A DNA stretch of 24,000 nt. Origin: Candidatus Caldarchaeum subterraneum. Lineage in GTDB: Archaea; Thermoproteota; Nitrososphaeria_A; Caldarchaeales; Caldarchaeaceae. Made by a program: the position numbers and the translations under genes. The notes below the pieces were generated by a model, which did not search any database, was not told where the DNA came from, and saw only the letters and a list, made by a program, of their open reading frames with translations. The stretch spans positions 34,564 through 58,563 of the forward strand of contig CALHAG010000021.1 of the NCBI GenBank assembly GCA_937934305.1, in the 5' to 3' direction. Positions 1 through 24,000 of this stretch are shown here, one piece after another (the first letter of the stretch is position 1; every line of letters begins with the position of its first letter).

Positions 1-360
1 AGGCGCATCAAGCATCTCTCCACCCTTCTCCTCTACACGACGCGCCATCTCCCTCGAGAAACCTGGAGAAACAGTCGACATATCCACCACAACACATCCC
101 GGAGCCAATCCCTCCAAGACACCGCCCCGACCGAGCAAAACCTGTTCAACAGCCTTCTCATCGGGCAGCATGGTTATGACACATTCAGAAGATTCTGCCA
201 CTTCCTTCGACGAGCCACATGGAGTGGCTCCGAGAGAAGCGAGCTCCTCCATAGGTGCCTTGCTACGGTTAAACACAGCCATCTTAAACCCATGTCGCAG
301 AAGATTCTTCGCCATCGGCTTTCCCATGAGACCAAGCCCTATGAACCCAACCCGCTCCAT
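1..360 (-). CDS. NAD(P)-dependent beta-hydroxyacid dehydrogenase (3-hydroxyisobutyrate / tartronate-semialdehyde reductase family); N-terminal 120 aa only, gene runs off the left edge
   Basis: Not in the ORF track because there is no stop in the window. The reverse complement of 360..1 reads without stops: MERVGFIGLGLMGKPMAKNLLRHGFKMAVFNRS...ECVITMLPDEKAVEQVLLG...VVVDMSTVSP...GGEMLDAP. It has the GxGxMGxxMAxNL Rossmann motif plus the MLP and DAP(VSGG) motifs typical of this family. Confidence 0.8.
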   Translation of the reverse strand, partial: MERVGFIGLGLMGKPMAKNLLRHGFKMAVFNRSKAPMEELASLGATPCGSSKEVAESSECVITMLPDEKAVEQVLLGRGGVLEGLAPGCVVVDMSTVSPGFSREMARRVEEKGGEMLDAP

Positions 361-435
361 GACAATGAATCTTTAAAGGCTGTATGTAGGTTTTTTACTT
401 GGTGTTCCCCCGTTTTCCATGCGCTGAACAAAGTA

Positions 436-1131
436 ATGAAGCAGCGTTCACAGCATCTGTACCCCGTGCCCGTTAGGGTTGAGGATTTGGCGAGCCTCGT
501 AAGGCTGGCGTCTTCGCGATGGGACTACATACCTCATCTCATAGCCTTTCGACACGGCCAACAAACCATAATCGCATATCTTCAGACTATGCCTCTGGGA
601 AAAGTAAACATCCCCATGCTTTTCCACACCACAGCACCGGAGCCTGTGAAAAAATATGTCGTTTACACAGCTCTGGAAAAAGAGGAGACAAGACTATCCG
701 ACCAGCCCGAGACAGGCCGCTACATCTCCTATCCAATAATCCACGCAGACCCACCGCCCCACATCTTGGAGAAAGCAATAACCGGCAAACATGTAAGAAA
801 AATCCGCGGCATCGAGAAGATAAAAGTCAAGGCTCTCGACTCGATTATGCGCCTGGTTTCAGCGATGACTGACGAGTCGTTCAGCCCACCGGTGTGGTGC
901 TACAGGTCCCGAAACGGTTACAACCTCGCCGTCCTATACCCTGTATACGAATACTACGACTCAATAGCTCTCCCCTTCCTCTACTACGTCGAAGTGGAGG
1001 AGAAGCCGCCCGCGCCCTTCATCGCATACTCGCCCACCCTCGGCAGGGAGAGCATACGTTACACAAACTCCGTCTCCGATACACGCTACTCCTACGGTCG
1101 GCTGATATTTCTCGAAAAATTCATCGTTTAG
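436..1131 (+). CDS. Hypothetical protein (231 aa), no family recognised; apparent internal duplication
   Basis: Track ORF 292..1131. The first 48 codons overlap the conserved dehydrogenase N-terminus on the other strand, so the ATG at 436 (MKQRSQHLYPVP...) is the likelier start. AT-rich elements at about 370-399 lie upstream. The composition looks like ordinary coding sequence, unlike the R/P/S-rich alternative frames 519..872 and 894..1199. Confidence 0.55.
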   Translation: MKQRSQHLYPVPVRVEDLASLVRLASSRWDYIPHLIAFRHGQQTIIAYLQTMPLGKVNIPMLFHTTAPEPVKKYVVYTALEKEETRLSDQPETGRYISYPIIHADPPPHILEKAITGKHVRKIRGIEKIKVKALDSIMRLVSAMTDESFSPPVWCYRSRNGYNLAVLYPVYEYYDSIALPFLYYVEVEEKPPAPFIAYSPTLGRESIRYTNSVSDTRYSYGRLIFLEKFIV

Positions 1132-1375: not shown

Positions 1376-3031
1376 ATGGCTGCAACAGTAGGAACAGCTA
1401 CTCAACCTGTTATAATTTTGAAGGAAGGCGCCAAGCGGATGCGTGGAAGAGAGGTGCAGAGCGCCAACATAATGGTGGCCAAGATAATCGCCGAGACCAT
1501 GAAGTCCTCGCTGGGGCCCCGTGGCATGGACAAAATGCTCGTAGACAGCTTCGGCGACATCGTGATTACAAACGACGGCGCAACCATCCTCAAGGAAATG
1601 GATGTCGAGCATCCCGTGGCCAAGATGTTGGTGGAGGTTTCCAAGGCTCAGGATGAGGAGGTAGGCGACGGGACGACATCCACGGTTGTGCTTGCAGGTG
1701 AATTGTTGACGAAGGCAGAAGAGCTCATCGAGAAAGAGGTTCATCCAACCCTCATCATCGAGGGCTACCGGAAAGCCGCTGTAAAAGCTCTGGAGATCCT
1801 CGACGAAATTGGTGTCAAAGTCGACCCAACAGACAAAGCTCTTCTCAAAAAGGTTGCCAAAACATCGATGATCAGCAAGCTGGTGGCGGAGGAGGCGGAT
1901 TACTTGGCCGACTTGGTGGTTGAAGCGGTGACGAGGATAGCGGAGAAAGTAGGCGACAAATGGGTCGTGGACCTCGACGACATCAAGCTGGAGAAGAAGG
2001 AAGGCCAGTCGCTCCATGACACGAAGCTGATCGAGGGCGTTGTGCTGGACAAGGAGGTCGTCCACCCCGACATGCCGAAGCTAGTCCGCAACGCGAAAAT
2101 CGCCCTACTTGATGCAGCTCTCGAAATAGAGAAGACAGAGTTTGACGCAAAGCTCAACATAGAGTCGCCCGAGCAGATGCGCGCATTCATGAAGCAGGAA
2201 GAGGACATGCTGCGGCAGATGGTTGAAAAAATCGTCTCAACCGGCGCCAACGTAGTGCTGTGCCAGAAAGGCATCGACGACTTGGCGCAGTATTTCTTGG
2301 CTAAGAAAGGAGTGCTTGCTGTTAGGCGGATAAAGAAGAGCGACATGGATAAGCTGGCCAAGGCGACAAAAGGCCGCGTCATCTCCCGCATCGACGACCT
2401 AACACCCGAGGACCTTGGCAAGGCAGCTCTCGTTGAAGAGAGGAGGGTCGGTGAGGATAAGATGGTCTTCATAGAGGGCTGCGAGAACCCGCGTTCACTA
2501 ACCATCCTGATACGCGGCGGCACACAGAGAATAGTCGACGAGGCGGAGAGGTCTCTGAAAGACGCCATCAACGTTGTGAAGGATGTGATTGTAGAGGGTA
2601 AAGTGATTGCGGGAGGGGGAGCATCTGAGCTGGAGACCGCGCTACGGCTTAGGGATTATGCCAAAAGCCTGCCAGGCAAGGAGCAGCTGGCTGTGAACAA
2701 GTTTGCCGAGGCTCTTGAGGCTATACCGTCCCAGCTGGCGGAGAGCTGTGGCATGGACCCGATAGAGGCTATTGTGAACCTCACCTCCAAACACAAGGAG
2801 GGAAACATCAACTACGGAATCAACGTCTTCAAATCGGAGCTCGCCGACATGAAGCAGCTCGACGTGTTAGACCCTCTGCTCGTCAAGAAGCAGACCATCA
2901 AGTCCGCCGTCGAAGCAGCCGCGATGATTCTGAAGATTGACGACATCATAGCGGCCTCGAGGCTGGAGACACCGGGAGCAGGTAAGAAAGGAGAGAAGGA
3001 AGAAGGCGGAGTTGGCGAGTCAGAAGACTGA
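1376..3031 (+). CDS. thsA: Thermosome subunit (group II chaperonin, Cpn60/TCP-1 family)
   Basis: 551 aa with the hallmark motifs [48 protein letters not shown] and VIAGGGASE, and a G/E-rich C-terminal tail. Confidence 0.97.
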
Positions 3032-3269
3032 AGCAAAAACGGCCCAGCTCCGCCTAACAAAATATGAAAAAGCCCGCATCATAGGCGGCCGGGCCCTGCA
3101 ACTTTCTCTTGGCGCATTTCCCCTAGTTGAGGTGCGGCCGGGCGACAGCAACATCGACATAGCTAAACGCGAGTTTGAACGCGGGGTTCTCCCCATCATT
3201 ATTCGTCGGAAAAGGTTTGACGGAAGCTATGTCGACATTCCGCTAAAAGAGCTGCTCGGAAATGAGTGA
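3012..3269 (+). CDS. rpoK: DNA-directed RNA polymerase subunit K (Rpo6)
   Basis: [21 protein letters not shown]...[33 protein letters not shown] matches the Rpo6/RpoK core. The only possible start in frame is TTG at 3012, 20 nt inside the thermosome 3' end. Confidence 0.9.
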
Positions 3270-3536: not shown

Positions 3537-4631
3537 ATGTTTCGCAGCGGGGTAAAAGACCTTAGGGGGTGGAGTGGAAGAGCAGCGCGTTTCCACTACA
3601 ACAGGTCACGCGAGATAATCAACGAAGTTGTCCACTCCTTCCTCAACATCTACGGCCCCGACGAGCTTGTCCAAGGCTTTGCGGAGCCCTTCTTCACAGA
3701 CTTCGTCATAACAGCGGCGGGATTGGATGAGACATCAGCGGACTCAACCCTTTACATGGGCTCCATGCTGAAGGAGGTTATCAGCCCACGTGACGGCGCC
3801 GCGGTTCTGGGCGGCAGGTTTGCGACGAGGTTCCGCATCCCGAATGAATTGCCAGAGGTGGCGAAGCTCTTCGGATTCTCCGAGACGATGGTTGAGCGGC
3901 TGCTTTACTGCAGCAGAATGGTTGCTAAAACAGATAGTGTGGCGCTGCAGGACGGCTTCGACCTATATTTTCACATGATGATTTTGTCAAGCAGCGGTGT
4001 CTGGACTGTTATACAGCAAAGCCTTAACCCCTACACCATGGCTGTCCGCCGCTACCACTGGTTTTCGGGCCGGGTGAAAAGCTTTGTTGACGAACCTCAC
4101 ACAGGCATAGTCTCTGACGAAATTAGGCAACGTGTTCTGGACATGACGGCAAAAGCCAGCAGCGAGTCGAGGCGCGCTTCTCTCGAGGTTCTTGAGAGGG
4201 ATGTGTCGAAGCTGCAGAGGCTTCACATGTTCGGCCGCCTCACAAACCAGACAACTCTTGATGACGAGGGGAAGAGCGTGGCCGATTTTCTCAGGCCGAT
4301 GGAGAGAATAAACTGGACACTCGTCTACAGGCTGGGGGAGCAGCAGCCCAAATCCTACGAGGAGCTGCTGGCCGTCAAGCAGGTTGGACGCGGAATCATT
4401 CGGCTGCTCGCCTTCGGAGTCTACATGATGTACGGCGTCAAACCCAGCCTACGCGACCCCGCATACCCACCCTCACAATACACAGCCAGATATGACGAAT
4501 CCTATTTCCTGTGGCGTCTGCAGCAGCTGGTTGATGCGATAAAGTCGTCGACGCTGGCGCCTGAGTTGAAGCGCTACTCTCTCCACAGGCTTGGCGAGGT
4601 TTTCGGCGAAGGTGAACCTGTCTCTGCCTAG
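3537..4631 (+). CDS. Conserved hypothetical protein, possibly a divergent DUF763 (COG1415)-like protein
   Basis: 364-aa ORF with clean coding character. The central block [17 protein letters not shown]...[20 protein letters not shown]...FVDEPHTGI resembles my recollection of the DUF763 core (AKVD..QDGY.LYHH...W.VVQQGM...ARRYHW..EPH). The family call is not verifiable here. Confidence 0.5.
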
Positions 4632-6144: not shown

Positions 6145-6294
6145 ATGGTTAAGACACTTCCTGTGAAGAAGAGGTTGGCTAAGGAGATGCGACGCGCTTG
6201 GCCGACGCCCGCGTGGGTGGTTGCCAAGACACGCCGCCGAGTCCGCTCATCCAACAGAAGAAGAAGCTGGCGCCGCAGCAGGATAAAGCCTTGA
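6145..6294 (+). CDS. rpl39e: 50S ribosomal protein L39e (eL39)
   Basis: Below the track cutoff. ATG 6145 to TGA 6294: MVKTLPVKKRLAKEMRRAWPTPAWVVAKTRRRVRSSNRRRSWRRSRIKP. It matches the eL39 pattern (K.RLAK..K.N...P.WV..KT.RRV......R.WRR.K.K). Confidence 0.85.
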   Translation: MVKTLPVKKRLAKEMRRAWPTPAWVVAKTRRRVRSSNRRRSWRRSRIKP

Positions 6295-13761: not shown

Positions 13762-14130
13762 TTGAAAAGGCTCAGTCCCCGTGAGATGAGACGTGCACAG
13801 GAGAGAATGTTGAAAAGCCTCGGCCTCAACGTGGAGGAAATGGGACAGGCCGAGGAGGTTGTAATCAAGCTGGGTGAGCGTGTGATTACGCTGAAGGGGC
13901 CGCTGGTCTACGCCGTGAAAACAGGCGGCGAGAAAATTTTTCAGATAATAGGCGGGGAGGAGGTGGCGGCGCAGGCTGAGGAGACGAAGCCCGTTTACGA
14001 GCCGACGGAGGAAGATGTTTCGCTGGTGATGGCTCAGACAGGCGTGTCAGAGGAGGAGGCGAAGAAAGCGCTTCTCGACTCGGGAGGAGACCTAGCCAAA
14101 GCCATTCTACTACTCCGCTCAAGAAGATAA
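13762..14130 (+). CDS. nac: Nascent polypeptide-associated complex protein (archaeal NAC; NAC + UBA domains)
   Basis: 122 aa, TTG start. NAC domain: MLKSLGLNVEEMGQAEEVVIKLGERVITLKGPLVYAVKTGGEKIFQIIG. C-terminal UBA: EEDVSLVMAQTGVSEEEAKKALLDSGGDLAKAILLL. Confidence 0.9.
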   Translation: MKRLSPREMRRAQERMLKSLGLNVEEMGQAEEVVIKLGERVITLKGPLVYAVKTGGEKIFQIIGGEEVAAQAEETKPVYEPTEEDVSLVMAQTGVSEEEAKKALLDSGGDLAKAILLLRSRR

Positions 14131-15726
14131 GACGACAAGCGGACGCAGGTCCAGCAAATCCTCAGCCATTTTAAAATCCATTTTTGCGACCAGCCCACCT
14201 GTGAAAAACCGAGCCAGCTCACGGACTTCACGTGACGAAGACGAGGCAACGTCAAAGGAATATGGCGCATCGCCGGTTATCCGCTCAACCTCACGCACAC
14301 CAAGAGACAATTCGTCAAGCCTCTTCATCCTTTCAGCCGCTCTCCTACTTGCCCTGCTTCCCAGAAGAACCACAACATCCTCGTCCACGCCGCTACATTC
14401 CTGAGCAACCTTCTTCACCAGCTCAACCCTGCCAAAGCCCTGCTTGGCAACAAGCTGCTCAACACCCACAGGAGACAAAACGCATGAACCCTCTTCCCCG
14501 GGCCAGAAACGTTGAAGAAACCGTTTTTTAGCGGAGAATGCGGCGGCAACAATTTCTACAGTCTCCCGCAAAATGTCCCAGAATTTTCTCTCAGAACCCC
14601 CGCACTTGAGGAAGAGATTCACCATGTTGATGGAGGCCTTTGCGGAGATAATCCCCGCCTCGCCAAATGGATGCCCCTCCGAGGAAACTACTCCGTGAGC
14701 CAAAACAAGCAAAACATCACCGGCCAACCTTGCGACGCTTTTGTCAAAAGGCAGAGTAGCGCTAATTCGCGCCTCAGCCAACCGGTTATACATGTTCCCC
14801 CGCGGCTCAGAGTAGAAAACAGATAGCCTTCTCCCAAACACCTGAACAGAGTCAAACAAAAGCATCAACATGTTTTCATCTATGTCAGGGTCCCGCAAAA
14901 CAACCTCAGCCTCAACACCACCAACCTCGCAGAGAACAGTTCTCAACATATCCGGCGTGTATAGACGCGAATAGACACTAAACCCCCACGTTTCCAAGCC
15001 CTCGAAATCAACCGCGCCAACCAAGTAAAGTCGAGCGGCCTCACTCGGCAGAATTTTGTGAAAAACATATTCCCTGAAAACCGCTCCAGAGGCCGTGGTC
15101 ATCAAAGACATAAAATTTCTCTGACGATGGTTCTCGCTAAGCAGCTTATCCACATCAGCAATAGGCATCCCCAGCCTAGCCAGCTTATTCCTATGCTCCA
15201 TCAACCCATGCTCGACAAGTAACGCGTTGACCATCTCACGTATCAGGGGAGCGGAGAGCTCACCAAGCTTAAGCTCCTCAAGTTTTTCTTCAAACAATTT
15301 AACAATCTTATCCGCGGTTTTCGGAGGCATAGAAGCCTCCTCAACAAGGACTCTCGTAATCTTGTTTCTGTCAAAATCTTCGAGAACCATGTCCGACCTC
15401 CTAACCTTTATCCTCTGCGAGATGCTTGACCTTATCTCGCTCAGGATTTTCAGAACCTGCACACCCTTCGTAGTCAACTCATAATTTTTGGTCTGACGGT
15501 TGAGTGTTATCAAGCCCGCTGCATAGAGCATCTTTAGATGATGTGCAAACTTTCCAGCGTCGCTTTTCTTATTCATTCCAAGGACATGCATCAACTCCGT
15601 GTAATTCAGCGGGCTTTTCTCCAGCTTTCTGAGGATGCTAAGCCTGTTAGGTGAAGCCAGTGATTTGAAGATTTTAGCGTCATCGATTGCTTCGCTCATC
15701 TCGGAGACAGAAGAATCTGTCTGCAC
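14119..15726 (-). CDS. ArsR-type wHTH + ATP-cone + degenerate class III ribonucleotide reductase (NrdD)-like domain protein; putative nucleotide-responsive regulator
   Basis: 535 aa from GTG 15726 (alternative ATG at 15699). Residues 15-95: IFKSLASPNRLSILRKL...NYTELMHVLGM...GKFAHHLKMLYAAGLI is an ArsR/HTH_20 pattern. Residues 106-186: IKVRRSDMVLEDFDRNKITRVLVEEA...ADKIVKLFEEKLEEL...LSAPLIREMVNALLVEHGL...LARLG is an ATP-cone pattern. Residues 195 onward: NFMSLMTTASGAVFREYVFHKILPSEAARLYLVGAVDFEGLE and IISAKASINMVNLF resemble NrdD blocks, but there is no CxxC zinc site and no C-terminal glycyl-radical motif. Confidence 0.7.
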   Translation of the reverse strand: MQTDSSVSEMSEAIDDAKIFKSLASPNRLSILRKLEKSPLNYTELMHVLGMNKKSDAGKFAHHLKMLYAAGLITLNRQTKNYELTTKGVQVLKILSEIRSSISQRIKVRRSDMVLEDFDRNKITRVLVEEASMPPKTADKIVKLFEEKLEELKLGELSAPLIREMVNALLVEHGLMEHRNKLARLGMPIADVDKLLSENHRQRNFMSLMTTASGAVFREYVFHKILPSEAARLYLVGAVDFEGLETWGFSVYSRLYTPDMLRTVLCEVGGVEAEVVLRDPDIDENMLMLLFDSVQVFGRRLSVFYSEPRGNMYNRLAEARISATLPFDKSVARLAGDVLLVLAHGVVSSEGHPFGEAGIISAKASINMVNLFLKCGGSERKFWDILRETVEIVAAAFSAKKRFLQRFWPGEEGSCVLSPVGVEQLVAKQGFGRVELVKKVAQECSGVDEDVVVLLGSRASRRAAERMKRLDELSLGVREVERITGDAPYSFDVASSSSREVRELARFFTGGLVAKMDFKMAEDLLDLRPLVVLSS

Positions 15727-16738: not shown

Positions 16739-16909
16739 GTGGGGATATCGAGCTTCTTCAAATCGGCGTTGACAACCTTGAAAATGGCGAAGAAACCCAC
16801 TTGGAAAGAATATTCCATAACGTTGAGAATTACTTTGCTGGGGCTGGGCATCATAGGTGTTCTGGCCTTTATTATACGGTTTCTGGCTATAGCTTTCCAG
16901 CCTGCTTGA
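16739..16909 (+). CDS. secE: Preprotein translocase subunit SecE (Sec61-gamma)
   Basis: Below the track cutoff. GTG 16739 (or ATG 16784) to TGA 16909: MGISSFFKSALTTLKMAKKPTWKEYSITLRITLLGLGIIGVLAFIIRFLAIAFQPA. It has the KKPT..E motif, a single C-terminal TM and the conserved position directly upstream of spt5-L11. Confidence 0.8.
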   Translation: MGISSFFKSALTTLKMAKKPTWKEYSITLRITLLGLGIIGVLAFIIRFLAIAFQPA

Positions 16910-16964
16910 CGCAGGTTTTTATTACCGGCGAAGCCTTAGAGTGGACAGGTTGAGCACGGCTGGG

Positions 16965-17849
16965 ATGAAGTATTTCGCGGTTAAGACAACGGTTGGGCAG
17001 GAGAGGACGGTGGCCAACGTTCTCGAGGCAAGGTTCCACGGCATTTTCCTCGACTTTGTCGGAGAATCGGTGGGAACAGTAGCGATAAGCGACAAAACTC
17101 ATGTGGCTGTGATTTTCGTTTCCCCGAAAACAACCATGTTGGAGAAGGTGGCGGTGTACATATCCAAGGCTGGCGAGCCAACCGAGCCCCTCCGCTCCAT
17201 GTTAGTCGAGTACAGTGATGAAACAGGGTTCGGTTCAGAGCCCCTTGGCGAGGGAAGCTACGACCCTCTACTTCTCAAAACAGACGGTTGGGCTGAGATA
17301 GTTTTCCGCTCACCTGTTAAACTGAGGCGCGGCACATCCTATGCTCTGAAGATTTTCAAAACAGTCGAGGAGGCGGGCGGCTATAACTTGTTTCTAGGAG
17401 AAGGTGAGAAAGAGGATGTACGGTTCAAGGTTTTTGAGCAGGGGGAGTGGAGAGATGATGCCCGGCTGCCTCTCTTCAAGCTGATTGAGAAGCCTGCGAT
17501 TGCGTCAATATTCATTCTTCCAGCCTTAAAGGGCTACGTGTTTGTTGAGGCGACTTCGAAAGAGGTTATCGCCGACGCGCTGCAGAATGTTAGGCATGTG
17601 AAGGCGAGGCCGCCGATGCCTGTGAAGCTGGAGACCATCGCATCGCACTTGGTTGAGAAACCTTTGATTGAGGTTTTGGCGGCTGGGCAGATGGTTGAGA
17701 TTGTCTCCGGCCCATTGAAAGGCATCGTCGGCAAAGTCATCAGGGTTGAGAAGTCGAGGCGCGAGGTCACGCTTGAGCTGAAAGAGGCGGCTTTCCAGCT
17801 CCCAATATCCGTCTCAATAGACGCCGTCCGCCCCATAGACAAGACGTAG
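16965..17849 (+). CDS. spt5: Transcription elongation factor Spt5 (NusG) with a ~150-aa insertion inside the NGN domain
   Basis: NGN start: MKYFAVKTTVGQERTVANVLEAR. NGN remainder: IASIFILPALKGYVFVEATSKEVIADALQNVRHVKA. KOW: GQMVEIVSGPLKGIVGKVIRVEKSRREVTLEL. Synteny is secE-spt5-L11. The ATG at 16965 is preferred over the track's GTG 16941, and TTTTTATTA at 16916-16924 is a possible TATA. Confidence 0.85.
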   Translation: MKYFAVKTTVGQERTVANVLEARFHGIFLDFVGESVGTVAISDKTHVAVIFVSPKTTMLEKVAVYISKAGEPTEPLRSMLVEYSDETGFGSEPLGEGSYDPLLLKTDGWAEIVFRSPVKLRRGTSYALKIFKTVEEAGGYNLFLGEGEKEDVRFKVFEQGEWRDDARLPLFKLIEKPAIASIFILPALKGYVFVEATSKEVIADALQNVRHVKARPPMPVKLETIASHLVEKPLIEVLAAGQMVEIVSGPLKGIVGKVIRVEKSRREVTLELKEAAFQLPISVSIDAVRPIDKT

Positions 17850-17883: not shown

Positions 17884-18372
17884 ATGGGTGAAAAAACCTT
17901 CCGCTTCCTCGTAGAAGGCGGCAAAGTCACGGCAGGCCCTCCGCTGGGACCAGCCCTAGGGCCTCTAGGGCTGAATGTGATGGCCGTAGCCGAGGAGGCT
18001 AACAGGCTTACACAGTCGTTTAACGGTATGCGAGTCCCGATTGAGGTGGTGGTCGACACAGATACTAAGAAGTTTGAGATAAGGGTTGGTACGCCTAGCA
18101 CCTCGGCTCTTCTCTCCAGCGCGGCGGGTGTGCAGAAGGGAAGCGGGACCGCGGGACGTGATTACGTGAGCGACCTCAAGTTCACAGAAATCGTGAAGAT
18201 TGCCGAGAAGAAGCTTCAAGACATGAGGTCCAAGACGCTCAAAGCCGCTGTCAAAGAAATACTCGGCTCATGCGTCAGCATGGGTATAAAAGTTGACGGC
18301 AAAAACCCCAAAGAGGTAATCAAGCTTGTCGAACAGGGAAAATACGACAATCTACTGGGTGAACAGAATTGA
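17884..18372 (+). CDS. rpl11: 50S ribosomal protein L11 (uL11)
   Basis: 162 aa: VEGGKVTAGPPLGPALGPLGLNVMAV..., FEIRVGTPSTSALL and SCVSMGIKVDGK match uL11. Confidence 0.97.
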   Translation: MGEKTFRFLVEGGKVTAGPPLGPALGPLGLNVMAVAEEANRLTQSFNGMRVPIEVVVDTDTKKFEIRVGTPSTSALLSSAAGVQKGSGTAGRDYVSDLKFTEIVKIAEKKLQDMRSKTLKAAVKEILGSCVSMGIKVDGKNPKEVIKLVEQGKYDNLLGEQN

Positions 18373-19085: not shown

Positions 19086-19949
19086 ATGTCCACCGTGGTT
19101 ACACGGCCAAGTTTAGTGAAGAAGGCTAGACTCGTTGAGGAGGTAGCTGAGCTTATCAAGAAATATCCTGTTGTCGCGGTCTTTGACCTGAGAAGCACCA
19201 GAGCCAACACCATACATGAGATGAGGAAAAAGCTCCGCGGATTATGTGAAATAAGAGTGCTCAAGAGGACCTTGTTCGTGAAAGCATGCAGGCTCGCGGG
19301 GAAACCTGAGTTGGAGAAACTCGTGGAAAACATCAAAGTTCCCGTGGGCTTCATCTTCAGCAGCGTCAACAGTTTCCAGCTCGCGTTAACGCTGGAGAAG
19401 AACAAGGTTCCCATGCATGCCAAAGCCGGGGAGAAAGCGGACTTCGACATCTGGGTGCCTGAAACAAACACAGGTCTTCCGCCGGGCCCAATTCTGAGCG
19501 ACTTCGGCAAACTCAGGATACCGACGAGGATAGAGGGGGGACAGGTTTGGATAGCCAAGGACACGCTCGTGGCTAAGAAGGGTGAGGAGATATCCCAGCT
19601 GCTTGCAAGCCTGCTGGTTAAACTCGACATCAAAGCTGTTCTAAGAGGCGTTAACCTGATAAGCGCTTACGAGGAAGGCGTCATCCTAAAGGCGGAGGAC
19701 CTTGTAATAGACCCTGTCAAGATTGGGCAAGAAATCGCGTCAGCGGCCTCGCTTGCACTCGCATTCGCGGTCAACATATCCTACATAACGAGGGAAACAC
19801 TGCCACAGCTGCTGATACGAGCCGAAACACACGCCAAGGCACTCGCGACAGAGGCAGGGTTCTACACAAGGGAGACACTGCCGACAATCTTTGCCAAGGC
19901 CTTGGCAGAGTCAAATGCTTTAGCGCGGGCCGCGGGTGTTTCTGAGTAG
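19086..19949 (+). CDS. rplP0: 50S ribosomal stalk protein P0 (uL10), lacking the usual acidic C-terminal tail
   Basis: KKARLVEEVAELIKKYPVVAVFDLRSTRANTIHEMRKKLRG..EIRVLKRTLF and the GLPPGPILSDFGKLRIPTRIEGGQVWI insertion domain match P0. There are three helix-repeat segments at the C-terminus (…SAASLALAFAVNISYITRETLPQLLIRAETHAKALATEAGFYTRETLPTIFAKALAESNALARAAG). The ATG at 19086 is preferred over the track start 19056. Confidence 0.9.
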   Translation: MSTVVTRPSLVKKARLVEEVAELIKKYPVVAVFDLRSTRANTIHEMRKKLRGLCEIRVLKRTLFVKACRLAGKPELEKLVENIKVPVGFIFSSVNSFQLALTLEKNKVPMHAKAGEKADFDIWVPETNTGLPPGPILSDFGKLRIPTRIEGGQVWIAKDTLVAKKGEEISQLLASLLVKLDIKAVLRGVNLISAYEEGVILKAEDLVIDPVKIGQEIASAASLALAFAVNISYITRETLPQLLIRAETHAKALATEAGFYTRETLPTIFAKALAESNALARAAGVSE

Positions 19950-22696: not shown

Positions 22697-24000
22697 CTAA
22701 GACGCCTGCTCAATGGAGAAATCCCTGGTGGAATAGGTGACCAGAGCCAAAGCGAACAACACATATCCCATTACCAGATAGGGGAGAAACGCGGGCGGAT
22801 TAGTCGCAATCGGCTCGAAAAGACGCGACACTAGCAGCGGGAGACTAAGCAGCTGCGAACCAAGAAGTGGGAGAACAACTATGAAAATCGAAGTGAAAGA
22901 GAAGGGAGAGGAAAAACGCTTTATCGAAGAAGATATCACGAGTGCGAGAAATGAGCCGAAAACCGCTGAACATAGAAACAGCAACACATCCAAGTACGTT
23001 AAAGCGAATAACCCCCCGAAGACCTGAACAGCTGCCACCATTAAAGATGAAAAAATTAAAGAAACAATTGTGTAGGCTATCAGTAATGTGTAAAAATAGG
23101 ATGAGACACGGTAAACAGAGAGCTGAACTAGCCACAGGTTATGTTTCTCCGTAAGAAGCCAGTTAAATGAAAGGAGAGCCGGTATCATCGGAGTGTACAG
23201 TGAGACTATAGTGAGGAAAATCGCCTCAGGCTGTGCTGTGAACGCAAGCGCTCTTGGAAGAGCAGTGCCAACGTAGACAAGTAAAAGCAGGACAAAAGCT
23301 GTTATCCAAAGACTGCCGTCTCGCAGGAACCTCGTCAAATGAGCTTTAACAAGCAAAGCAGTTGGCCTATCAGCGGCGTTTATTAGCAAAAATCTCGCCA
23401 CAGGCTGTGGAAGTTTAAAAGATGTGATCAATTTTCGCGGCGGGTCTGTGAAAACGTTGGTTAGTATCGGCGCCAAACCAGCGTATTCAACCTTTCTGGA
23501 GAGGAAAAGATTCACTGCAAGCAGCCCGCCTATTAGCAGAAACGCCGCAGAGGTTTTGAGGCCGCCCCCCGTCACACCGAGTAACAGATTTGTGGGATAT
23601 GGAAAGCTGCTAACCCATGGAAGTGATGCAAAAACATCCAAAAGCGGCAGTAATACTAGCATCAGCATCACCCCGCCCACAGCCATCACACCTCTCTTTC
23701 CCAACCAATTACGTAACAGGCCAAGCATGTGAGATATCAAAATGGACGAGACAACAGCCGCTTCAACAATCATTACAAAGTTAAACAAATGGATGAGATG
23801 ACGCGGGTAAGTGAGCACCGTTACAATAAGCAACATCGACGGCAGGGTGAATACGTTGAGGAAAATAAATTGAAACAAAAAATCGGACCAGAGATAGGTT
23901 CTCGGCCGCACATTCGAGGTGAAAATGTAGTCTATCTCATAGCCCAAGGCCGTTACACCCCCCTTCAAACCGAGAAACACACCCACAGCCAAGACACCAG
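22697..24000 (-). CDS. Polytopic integral membrane protein (more than 10 predicted TM segments), family not recognised; probably 5'-partial
   Basis: Track ORF 22697..23992 begins at a TTG. The same frame stays open and hydrophobic to the window edge (…GVLAVGVFLGL), so the true start probably lies beyond 24000. Hydrophobic segments recur throughout, as in an ABC-2-like permease or other transporter-like protein. Confidence 0.6.
   Translation of the reverse strand, partial: GVLAVGVFLGLKGGVTALGYEIDYIFTSNVRPRTYLWSDFLFQFIFLNVFTLPSMLLIVTVLTYPRHLIHLFNFVMIVEAAVVSSILISHMLGLLRNWLGKRGVMAVGGVMLMLVLLPLLDVFASLPWVSSFPYPTNLLLGVTGGGLKTSAAFLLIGGLLAVNLFLSRKVEYAGLAPILTNVFTDPPRKLITSFKLPQPVARFLLINAADRPTALLVKAHLTRFLRDGSLWITAFVLLLLVYVGTALPRALAFTAQPEAIFLTIVSLYTPMIPALLSFNWLLTEKHNLWLVQLSVYRVSSYFYTLLIAYTIVSLIFSSLMVAAVQVFGGLFALTYLDVLLFLCSAVFGSFLALVISSSIKRFSSPFSFTSIFIVVLPLLGSQLLSLPLLVSRLFEPIATNPPAFLPYLVMGYVLFALALVTYSTRDFSIEQAS

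Follow-up and report, generated by a model that had tools for sequence, protein, structure and literature searches.

An acidic jelly-roll domain predicted within the NGN domain of a Caldarchaeales Spt5

Why should the Spt5 encoded at this locus be twice as long as a normal archaeal Spt5 of 147 aa, and what is the additional half of the protein for? In the window, the whole stretch of 24,000 nucleotides that was analysed, spt5 lies at 16965..17849 on the + strand and encodes 294 aa plus stop, as the original prediction had pointed out. The protein scores 102.4 bits against the NCBIfam model TIGR00405 Spt5 (two stretches, cutoff 69.95), which passes the equivalog threshold, while the Pfam scan finds Spt5-NGN PF03439 at 54.5 bits, again in two stretches (cutoff 22.4), and KOW PF00467 at 24.3 bits (cutoff 22.3), with its motif at aa 241-269. 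The neighbours are canonical. Upstream is secE (16739..16909, + strand; in L042 and L044 this gene matches PF00584 SecE, marked weak), and downstream is the gene for ribosomal protein L11 (17884..18372, + strand; Pfam Ribosomal_L11 is found on the equivalent genes in L042-L044), the gene order secE-spt5-L11-L1-L10 being the canonical Spt5 synteny. There is one spt5 locus per genome, and in this Caldarchaeales (Aigarchaeota) archaeon the housekeeping Spt5, present once, is the ORF in the window.

The ORF that starts at ATG 16965 exists as predicted, but the protein may be slightly longer. In the alignment, 5-9 residues precede the K/R-Y-F-A motif in all Spt5 homologs, and the true start is likely to be TTG 16950, which would give a protein of 299 aa (MSTAGMKYF...). 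Independent assemblies call the gene as either 294 or 299 aa. In public MAGs, the insert-bearing Spt5s carry the plain label "Spt5".

Where does the extra length reside? The alignment to M. jannaschii (Mja) Spt5 (4zn1_A) is split, with query residues 3-27 corresponding to Mja 2-26 and residues 179-293 to Mja 30-144; thus, residues 1-24 and 179-294 together cover an entire normal 147-aa Spt5. The first part of the NGN domain (16965..17036, + strand) is equivalent to Mja 2-26 and contains β1 (aa 2-8) and α1 (aa 13-23), as assigned by DSSP on the AF2 model. The second part (17499..17654, + strand), aligned with Mja 30-82, contains β2 (179-183), β3 (191-196), α2, β4, and α3. The KOW domain (17670..17846, + strand; PF00467) aligns with those of Mja and P. 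furiosus (Pfu) through to the C-terminus. In Mja Spt5, A4, Y42, and L44 belong to the hydrophobic pocket that binds the RNAP clamp, and E46 anchors Spt4 (PMC2896526). The equivalents of Mja A4, Y42, L44, and E46 are A5, Y191, F193, and E195, so that the pocket and anchor residues are all present, A5 matching the RNAP-binding alanine, G190-Y191 the RNAP pocket, and E195 the Glu that anchors Spt4. Residues P186, G190, Y191, and E195 are invariant in 26/26 Spt5 sequences, and the conservation of E195 and of the β2 sequence equals that seen in Spt4-dependent archaea. The canonical archaeal Spt5 proteins (M. jannaschii 4ZN1/3LPE, P. furiosus 3P8B/8P2I, and T. kodakarensis 9BCT) share with the window protein both the end-to-end NGN and KOW alignment and the secE-spt5-L11 synteny; they differ from it in their α1-β2 loop of ~3 residues, in place of which it has a folded domain of ~150 residues, and in their total length, which is 147-166 aa as opposed to 294-324 aa for the insert-bearing proteins.

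The inserted segment is an acidic β-sandwich at 17037..17498 on the + strand (aa ~25-178), within 1-3 residues of the 17034-17495 (aa 24-177) first proposed, with boundaries taken from the Mja alignment. The AF2 model, by DSSP, has twelve β-strands across aa 27-175, between α1 and β2. Modelled alone, the insert reaches a pLDDT of 96.6 and a pTM of 0.90, the pTM of the full-length Spt5 model being only 0.65, and it is confidently predicted to be an all-β jelly-roll. In Foldseek searches, its PDB matches with TMq of 0.67-0.71 are the phi812 baseplate, the PBCV-1 capsid, and the Douge fibre, with weaker matches to PHR, CBM36, and the Cwp84 lectin-like domain, while in BFVD TMq goes up to 0.81; over the two databases, the phage tail, baseplate, and capsid domains match with TMq of 0.67-0.81. 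These alignments, models, fold searches, and family scans bear out the reading of an autonomous, non-intein β-sandwich placed in the NGN after α1 and followed by a normal KOW. The absence of cysteines holds only for the insert of the window, since most other orthologs have them. The linkers are ~3 residues at both ends; therefore, the domain should be rigidly held at the corner of the NGN where α1 ends and β2 starts. The window insert has a pI of 4.9 and a net charge of -6, and all 26 orthologs have acidic inserts (pI 4.6-6.2, net charge -1 to -13) next to an NGN+KOW portion with a pI of ~9-9.9.

It was the length, twice the norm, that first raised the suspicion of an artefact. That the insert stems from a chimeric assembly or a frameshift, or that it is an intein or some other mobile element, is nevertheless extremely improbable. 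The ORF is uninterrupted in 11 loci, and each of the three separate NCBI/ENA assemblies shown has an intact spt5 of 294 or 299 aa; about 60 blocks of the assembly collection contain other genes of the locus with unchanged protein sequences. Broken copies occur only in P0027 and P0030, which are frameshifted fragments on poor contigs. The insert is also conserved over two families between which dS is saturated. As for an intein, already ruled out in the original prediction, neither Pfam nor NCBIfam gives a Hint/intein match, the junctions (...RFHG and ...EKPA-IAS) lack Cys/Ser/Thr at +1 and the His-Asn motif, and the fold is that of a jelly-roll.

What, then, is the source of such a domain? With a cutoff of E<=1e-3, an exhaustive profile search returned 386 representative proteins that match the insert profile. 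Most of the ones examined are large and have the domain in two or more copies, and the best-scoring named carriers are proteins from Dehalococcoidia/Chloroflexota and WOR-3; among the nine best matches, which were scanned with Pfam, several bear Beta_helix, DUF2341, DUF1565, or BNR domains. Comparison by hhalign of the insert with the bacterial surface-protein modules gives a probability of 99.8% and E 2.4e-30 over 148 columns. DUF4082 matches 11 and Lectin_like 8 of 22 non-Spt5 copies. The window insert itself falls below the DUF4082 gathering threshold (13.5 bits, cutoff 28.4), the best ortholog insert reaching E 6e-5 for DUF4082 and 4.5e-4 for Lectin_like. These profile comparisons identify the insert as a diverged DUF4082/Lectin_like module of large bacterial surface-type proteins, from a family whose other members occur in proteins that are secreted or at the surface. 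The DUF4082 (PF13313) and Lectin_like (PF18560) modules are homologous to it and share its jelly-roll fold and its core aromatics: residues F51, W109, Y126, and W162 of the core are common to the insert and to 88-99% of the non-Spt5 copies. They differ in context, being found as tandem copies in proteins of 500-5000 aa (with β-helix, DUF2341, and BNR domains where scanned), whereas the insert is a single copy in a cytoplasmic transcription factor. Because the closest non-Spt5 copies score only ~50 bits, no donor lineage can be named. A recent horizontal acquisition is without support: the GC and GC3 of the insert lie within the range of the neighbouring genes, and the insert is common to two families with saturated dS.

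The distribution of the insert suggests how it may have entered Spt5. Every Spt5 found in Caldarchaeaceae and Calditenuaceae has it, and at full length. In the sister family Wolframiiraptoraceae (Ca. Geocrenenecus), Spt5 has at the identical site a hairpin "stump" of ~19 residues, for a total of 165-177 aa and no jelly-roll. In a tree built from the core only, the insert-bearing clade is supported by 93/100, the stump-bearing sister clade by 100/100, and the two together by 98/100, which points to a single origin of the insert. In sequence, the stump is similar to the strands with which the insert opens and closes; an example of this likeness is given by L018, KVIREVVEDG-KTVKVERIVEGIYSII, and P0017, RLAEVLVEEV...ILFKVKESTDVASII. 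It is tempting to propose that the jelly-roll was fixed in the NGN α1-β2 connection in the ancestor of Caldarchaeaceae and Calditenuaceae, and that its entry point was probably the tip of a short β-hairpin, still present in Wolframiiraptoraceae. The stump-bearing lineage would then offer an unusually clear before-and-after pair for the grafting of a domain into an essential, ancient protein.

Does the domain have a function, or is it a passenger, tolerated in a permissive surface loop, with no specific role and kept only so that the NGN can fold? Several observations are in line with a passenger: the location on the surface distal to the polymerase, an evolutionary rate several-fold faster than that of the core, a sister clade that functions without the jelly-roll, and the decay of family motifs, the Q of QxF and the Asp-box being lost in the Caldarchaeum type. 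The non-synonymous rate is 3-14 times above that of the core, and, given this faster evolution, part of the insert surface may be unconstrained. However, the insert is under purifying selection, with a dN/dS of 0.089 (core, 0.012), and it is kept in 25/25 homologs at 41-98% identity; a dN/dS of 0.09 and the retention of the complete domain throughout two families are not what is expected of a passenger.

The pattern of invariant residues also argues against it. Column conservation was compared between 18 Spt5 inserts and 120 non-Spt5 domain copies, and the invariants specific to Spt5 are DPL, R122, P75-L76, L170, and E175. In the motif D100-P101-L102-L103 (17262..17273, + strand), D-P-L is invariant in all Spt5 inserts and L103 is present in 83%, each residue of DPLL being found in at most 26% of the non-Spt5 family members. 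R122 (17328..17330, + strand) is likewise invariant in the Spt5 inserts, at a position where the commonest residue of the wider family is Ala (39%). These own invariants, together with the Q of QxF lost in the Caldarchaeum type, set the insert apart from the DUF4082/Lectin_like modules, and in the wider family the positions of DPL and R122 do not belong to the fold core. We therefore think it unlikely that the domain is a mere passenger. From its conservation pattern, DPLL is a candidate lineage-specific interface, and R122 may touch NGN or Spt4.

The position of the insert bears on what such an interface might meet. Published structures, taken together with the topology, indicate that it leaves the NGN at the corner that binds Spt4 and points away from the polymerase. 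It is thus relevant to ask whether Spt4 is present. A search with an Spt4 HMM (verified Pfu, T. kodakarensis (Tko), and Mja Spt4) gave no match among all the ORFs of the window and 38 loci. PF06093 gave none within ±10 kb beyond the window, and there is no Spt4 within about 45 kb around spt5. A large-database search returned 208 Spt4 matches; among the 120 listed, most of them without an organism label, none is labelled Caldarchaeum or Aigarchaeota. Three NCBI Spt4 matches, from assemblies unrelated to the insert-bearing MAGs, show the synteny Rpo7-Spt4-(DUF359)-S24e. Spt4 normally is unlinked to spt5 and sits in the Rpo7-Spt4-S24e cluster. Since it is unlinked, and since 120 of the 208 matches were listed, most of them unlabelled, the failure to find it is uninformative.

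One reading of these data is that the jelly-roll is a built-in substitute for Spt4, packing in cis on the β2 edge and α1 face and stabilizing the NGN, in a clade that has lost Spt4 or does not need it. The insert does emerge, on very short linkers, between two elements that contact Spt4, α1 and the edge of the β-sheet, and beside the Glu that anchors Spt4, and its Spt5-specific invariants include R122, which could pair with the invariant E195. Furthermore, a cis-acting stabilizer would be useful, since Mja Spt5 without Spt4 precipitates at 75 °C (PMC2896526). The lack of a Caldarchaeum- or Aigarchaeota-labelled Spt4 among the matches listed, and of any near spt5, is in keeping with the loss of Spt4, with the reservation about linkage and labels already made. 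On the other hand, the conservation of E195 and β2 fits a retained binding of Spt4 equally well. To our knowledge, Spt4 is near-universal in archaea. We thus regard a substitute for Spt4 as improbable. A broader proposal has the jelly-roll acting in cis as a partner of the NGN face that otherwise meets Spt4, its strong form being the replacement of Spt4 in Caldarchaeaceae and Calditenuaceae and its weaker form a clamp on Spt4 that doubles as a new docking platform, specific to the clade, on the elongating polymerase; this, too, we give little weight. If Spt4 were indeed replaced, this would be the first archaeal/eukaryotic-type Spt5 without its otherwise universal partner, supplanted by an unrelated surface-protein module fused in at the site of that partner, and, if the cis-partner proposal were correct, the hairpin of the sister clade would be a preserved evolutionary intermediate.

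The same corner of the NGN brings DNA into consideration. In published models the outer surface of Spt4/NGN runs along the path of the upstream DNA, and the Pfu and Tko NGN domains touch the upstream non-template DNA. In T. maritima (Tma) NusG, domain II (DII) binds dsDNA at 40 nM, has been modelled near the upstream DNA, and is a proposed stabilizer of the NusG:RNAP complex at high temperature (PMC5224480). The archaeal insert might, by analogy, extend to the upstream duplex or to proteins sitting on it, thereby stabilizing the elongation complex. Yet the insert is acidic in 26/26 orthologs, unlike the basic patch of Tma DII, and no nucleic-acid-binding fold is found among its listed PDB and BFVD fold matches in Foldseek. 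Binding of DNA or RNA is unlikely because the domain is acidic. An acidic domain could instead bind basic chromatin proteins, just as histones are bound by the acidic N-terminus of the eukaryotic Spt5 (PMC8886531); for the archaeal insert, the chromatin version is pure speculation. Overall, contact with upstream DNA or chromatin seems to us quite improbable.

We favour, with moderate confidence, a protein-protein module: the long Spt5 would owe its length to an ancestral jelly-roll insertion that serves protein-protein contacts on the Spt4-side corner of the NGN. The most likely role of the insert would be that of a rigid protein-interaction and stabilizing module beside Spt4. It might buttress the NGN, and the NGN-Spt4 unit, at high temperature, and it might provide the elongation complex with a docking surface specific to the clade. 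The argument from thermostability loses force, since Ca. Geocrenenecus, a sister clade no less thermophilic, has only the hairpin. Should the domain turn out to clamp Spt4, to take its place, or to bring in a new partner, archaeal elongation would be regulated in a manner peculiar to this lineage, the closest one to the ammonia-oxidising Thaumarchaeota; should it be no more than a stabilizing decoration, the result is a modest annotation note.

How does this arrangement compare with known systems? In a full-text literature search, no account of a long Spt5 was found for Aigarchaeota or Caldarchaeum, consistent with the initial impression that no archaeal equivalent had been described. The NusG proteins of T. 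maritima and A. aeolicus (Aae), both cited in the original prediction, are valid precedents for an extra domain within the NGN, although not for an insertion after α1. T. maritima NusG DII (PDB 2XHC, 2XHA) resembles the archaeal insert in being an autonomous extra domain inside the NGN of the housekeeping NusG/Spt5 of a thermophile, and 2XHC is the top Foldseek match of the full model, through the common NGN-insert-KOW layout. The DII of A. aeolicus, a hyperthermophile (PDB 1M1G, 1NPP), is likewise an extra β-rich domain in the NGN; it has only ~70 residues (Aae ~63-130). The sites, however, are not the same. Residues 1-41 of Tma NusG contain "LVGRIVIP", with DII comprising residues 41-233, and Aae NusG 10-62 aligns to E. 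coli NusG 9-61 with β2 included. Both bacterial domains therefore come after β2, in the β2-β3 hairpin, whereas the archaeal insert lies between α1 (13-23) and β2 (179-183).

The folds differ as well. Tma DII has a two-subdomain fold, and the list of 50 PDB fold matches that Foldseek gave for the insert contains neither 2XHC/2XHA nor 1M1G; no sequence match between the insert and DII was found. Tma DII has a basic patch and binds dsDNA, and the archaeal insert is acidic. Moreover, the host of Tma DII is bacterial, with no Spt4. Aae DII and Tma DII have no sequence or structural homology to each other, and both are basic and bind nucleic acids (PMC5224480). Homology of the insert to the bacterial DII is rejected on the site and on the 50 fold matches listed. 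Since the site differs and the folds are unrelated, the archaeal insert is an independent invention rather than an equivalent of DII. Accessory domains in the NGN have so far been known only from two thermophilic bacteria, and the Caldarchaeales insert is a third, independent case and the first in archaea. It is set apart from DII by another insertion site, another fold, the opposite charge, an identifiable donor family, and a predicted location at the Spt4 interface.

The spt5 reading frame of the window lies on the forward strand at 16965–17849, giving 294 aa from its ATG, in the canonical gene order secE–spt5–L11–L1–L10, with secE upstream at 16739–16909 and L11 downstream at 17884–18372, followed by L1 and L10. 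In-frame starts occur upstream of the ATG at 16941 (GTG) and 16950 (TTG). Since NCBI MAG annotations begin the same gene at the TTG (MSTAGMKYF..., 299 aa), and since 5–9 residues precede the K/R-Y-F-A motif in all Spt5 homologs, a product of 299 aa appears more likely than one of 294 aa. The Pfam Spt5-NGN model (54.5 bits) and the Spt5 equivalog TIGR00405 of NCBIfam (102 bits) each match the protein in two stretches, and Pfam also recognizes KOW. In the alignment with the solved M. jannaschii Spt5, residues 3–27 of the window Spt5 correspond to 2–26 and residues 179–293 to 30–144; therefore, about 150 residues (aa ~25–178, nt 17037–17498), the insert, stand in for a three-residue loop. The original prediction had thus located and described the insert correctly. 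We regard the Spt5 identity, together with the fold, homology and distribution of the insert, as essentially certain.

On the minus strand, alaRS runs 30 nt into the 3′ end of L10/P0 (window 19920–19949), and L12 (Ribosomal_60s) lies ~5 kb beyond L10, at 7352–7675 of L042, a locus from another assembly; the usual L11–L1–L10–L12 cluster is therefore interrupted. Two DUF763 paralogs flank the spt5 region within ~25 kb, at window 3537–4631 (+) and L042 6118–7218. The minus-strand gene at window 14119–15726 encodes a putative, unusual ATP-cone-containing regulator of 535 aa, with an N-terminal winged HTH (DUF7347/ArsR-type), an ATP-cone at aa 106–174 and a ~350-aa C-terminal region without a Pfam match; it adjoins an OTCase-family carbamoyltransferase gene, an arrangement kept in related assemblies. 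Also kept there are two sizeable ORFs without Pfam match, at window 292–1131 (+) and 22697–23992 (−), which encode 231–279 aa and 431–471 aa, depending on the start codon. Two small genes are easily overlooked under ORF length cut-offs: rpoK/Rpb6 (window ~3012–3269, +), which shares ~20 nt with the 3′ end of the thermosome gene, and L39e (49 aa, window ~6145–6294, +), both with coordinates derived from locus L039.

The insert is a real, folded and selected domain. An AlphaFold2 model of the full window Spt5, built with a 26-sequence alignment, has a pLDDT of 88.5 overall and of 92–97 over the insert; modelled by itself, the insert reaches a pLDDT of 96.6 and a pTM of 0.90. In the full-length model, β1 (2–8) and α1 (13–23) are followed by twelve strands within 27–175, and then by β2 (179–183) and β3 (191–196). 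The insert is present in 25 of 25 database homologs (41–98% identity, 281–324 aa), in which F51, D100-P101-L102, W109, R122 and Y126 are invariant. Measured against L023, the nearest ortholog whose dS is not saturated, the insert has a dN/dS of 0.089 versus 0.012 for NGN+KOW, and GC and GC3 of the insert are like those of neighbouring genes. Misassembly, a concern raised in the original prediction, is disposed of because other genes of the locus recur with exactly identical protein sequence in ~60 blocks of the assembly collection, and because the spt5 gene calls at the three places shown, in separate NCBI and ENA assemblies, are all intact, with 294 or 299 aa. An intein, rejected from the outset, is likewise ruled out, as family scans gave no intein or Hint match in the insert and splicing residues are absent at its junctions. 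That the long Spt5 is an artefact or an intein is thus exceedingly improbable.

The best PDB fold matches of the insert (TMq 0.60–0.71) are domains of phage and virus proteins: the baseplate of S. aureus phage phi812 (a DUF4815 protein), a chain of a PBCV-1 capsid protein, the central fibre of mycobacteriophage Douge, the Bxb1 tail tip and a cyanophage A4 capsid protein. Among the lower-ranking matches are PHR domains, CBM36 and the Cwp84 lectin-like domain. In BFVD, phage minor-tail and tail-type proteins match with TMq values of up to 0.81. The window insert itself matches DUF4082 only faintly; ortholog inserts match DUF4082 down to E 6e-5 and Lectin_like down to 4.5e-4. An exhaustive profile search with an insert alignment gave 386 representatives at E ≤ 1e-3. 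Among the best 150 of these, non-Spt5 carriers are 150–5500 aa long (most >500 aa), about two thirds of the carriers examined have at least two copies of the domain, and none has an Spt5 core outside the insert-bearing clade. Named carriers belong to Dehalococcoidia/Chloroflexota and WOR-3, and several of the nine best, compared with Pfam, have right-handed β-helix, DUF2341, DUF1565 or BNR domains. Profile–profile comparison of the Spt5 inserts with 22 non-Spt5 copies yields a probability of 99.8% (E 2.4e-30, 148 columns); DUF4082 is recognized in half of these copies and Lectin_like in a third. From these fold and profile matches, it follows that the insert is a diverged member of a family of jelly-roll modules normally located in secreted or surface proteins, the fold of which is also found in virion proteins.

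The family-wide core residues F51, W109, Y126 and W162 are kept in 88–99% of the non-Spt5 copies, and D100-P101-L102(-L103), R122, P75-L76, L170 and E175 are conserved only in Spt5 copies. These Spt5-specific invariant residues and the dN/dS of 0.09 both argue against a tolerated passenger, which we consider an improbable account of the insert. An Asp-box-like SxDxGxxW motif (e.g., ISNDGGLEW, VSGDGGRTW) is retained in the deeper-branching inserts of Calditenuaceae/HR01 type (representatives P0015–P0023), and the Pfam BNR model matches four inserts. The motif is degenerate in the window Spt5 (FEQGEWRD, aa ~157–164), and Caldarchaeum-type inserts have lost the Q of the family QxF motif as well.

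Three Spt5 groups emerge when each GTDB species is represented in the scan by a single genome. Long, insert-bearing Spt5s (294–324 aa; loci L001–L016 and L023) occur in Ca. Caldarchaeum (Caldarchaeaceae), Ca. Pelearchaeum (Calditenuaceae), HR01 and further Nitrososphaerota MAGs. Spt5s of 165–177 aa (L017–L022, e.g., L017 5983–6492), from Ca. Geocrenenecus (Wolframiiraptoraceae) and two other Caldarchaeales/Nitrososphaeria MAGs, bear a stump, that is, ~19 extra, hairpin-like residues at the same α1–β2 site as the insert. Ordinary Spt5s, from Bathyarchaeia, Nezhaarchaeota, Heimdallarchaeota and M. jannaschii, have a short loop there. In sequence, the stump is similar to the insert's two terminal strands (KVIREVVEDG-KTVKVERIVEGIYSII in L018; RLAEVLVEEV...ILFKVKESTDVASII in the insert representative P0017). 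In an NJ tree built on the NGN+KOW core only, the insert-bearing proteins are monophyletic (93/100), as are the stump-bearing ones (100/100) and both together (98/100). A single event separates insert from stump: a hairpin that already existed may have received the jelly-roll at its tip, or else Wolframiiraptoraceae may have lost all but a stump of the domain. The stump may represent either an intermediate in evolution or what a deletion left behind. P0027 and P0030, which look like short proteins with the insert, are frameshifted long-Spt5 fragments from poor assemblies and not separate architectures. The short contig L001 (CAYTDX010000200.1, 1375 bp), assigned to a bacterial bin, “Caldimicrobium sp.”, carries a 95%-identical long spt5 and is almost certainly mis-binned and of Caldarchaeales origin.

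What, then, might the insert do? Spt4 and the NGN β-sheet lie edge to edge, with further contacts of Spt4 to the NGN helices α1 and α3; a hydrogen bond links Spt4 Ser39 to Spt5 Glu46, which sits where β3 ends (PMC2896526). In the AlphaFold2 model, the insert departs three residues past α1 and rejoins three residues ahead of β2, and the long Spt5s conserve the RNAP-pocket residues A5, G190-Y191 and F193 as well as E195, the Glu46 equivalent. From the published Spt4/NGN structures, the short linkers and these conserved residues, we infer a rigid attachment of the jelly-roll to the polymerase-distal NGN corner, beside Spt4, where it would not interfere with clamp binding and would have to touch Spt4 or take part of its site. 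That it serves as a substitute for Spt4 in cis seems unlikely. Spt4 was not found within ~45 kb of spt5, as expected because Spt4 elsewhere sits in an Rpo7–Spt4–(DUF359)–S24e(–S27ae–Kae1) arrangement, seen in three unrelated archaeal MAGs (L045, L048, L049). A database search seeded with the verified P. furiosus (Pfu), T. kodakarensis (Tko) and M. jannaschii Spt4s gave 208 Spt4s; among the 120 listed, few with organism names, none is labelled Caldarchaeum. The Rpo7–Spt4–S24e arrangement is a useful anchor for locating Spt4, or its absence, in Caldarchaeales.

In published structures, the NGN domains of Pfu and Tko touch the non-template strand upstream, and the FttA docking site is KOW, not the Spt4 side. 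Contact of the insert with upstream DNA or chromatin is disfavoured, however, by its charge, and we think it rather unlikely: the insert is acidic in every ortholog (pI 4.6–6.2, net charge −1 to −13), and NGN+KOW is basic (pI ~9–9.9). The surface is acidic, the fold has a pedigree of protein and glycan binding, and some residues are invariant in the Spt5 copies alone; on these grounds we lean, on balance, towards a protein–protein module that would brace the NGN(–Spt4) unit and provide the clade with a docking surface of its own.

The original prediction took domain II (DII) inside the NGN of T. maritima (Tma) and A. aeolicus NusG, placed after α1, as a precedent; it is apt as an analogy, but the insertion site differs. 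A. aeolicus NusG 10–62 aligns to E. coli 9–61 through β2 (VDEVIVPAEEKVVIR with FGEVMVPTEEVVEIR), and 131–247 to 64–183 from β3 (IFPGYILIKA); the alignment breaks between these strands, and therefore DII lies within the β2–β3 hairpin. T. maritima NusG 1–41 has β2 (LVGRIVIP) at its end, the DII crystal construct comprises 41–233, and ΔDII joins 1–41 to 226–353. The archaeal insert lies before β2, whereas both DIIs lie after it. The two DIIs are unrelated to each other and are proposed thermoadaptations; their basic surfaces bind nucleic acids, and Tma DII additionally binds RNAP (PMC5224480). The archaeal insert, in contrast, is acidic, and its fold differs from both, as neither DII is among the 50 PDB fold matches listed. 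A 2021 review of the NusG/Spt5 family names no acquired domain other than Tma DII and emphasizes that the topology of NGN is nearly invariant (PMC7819879). A full-text literature search found no description of a long Spt5 of Aigarchaeota/Caldarchaeum, in agreement with the original prediction, which knew of no described archaeal equivalent; overall, the observation is confirmed, and its interpretation is supported with corrections. The long Spt5 belongs to a type already known, NusG/Spt5 proteins in which NGN houses an accessory domain, and is the first archaeal example. The site of the insert is new, and so is its fold, which has an identifiable origin; the insert is predicted to lie at the Spt4 interface, and a sister clade bears the stump. 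The archaeal insert is a third, independent solution beside the two bacterial DIIs.
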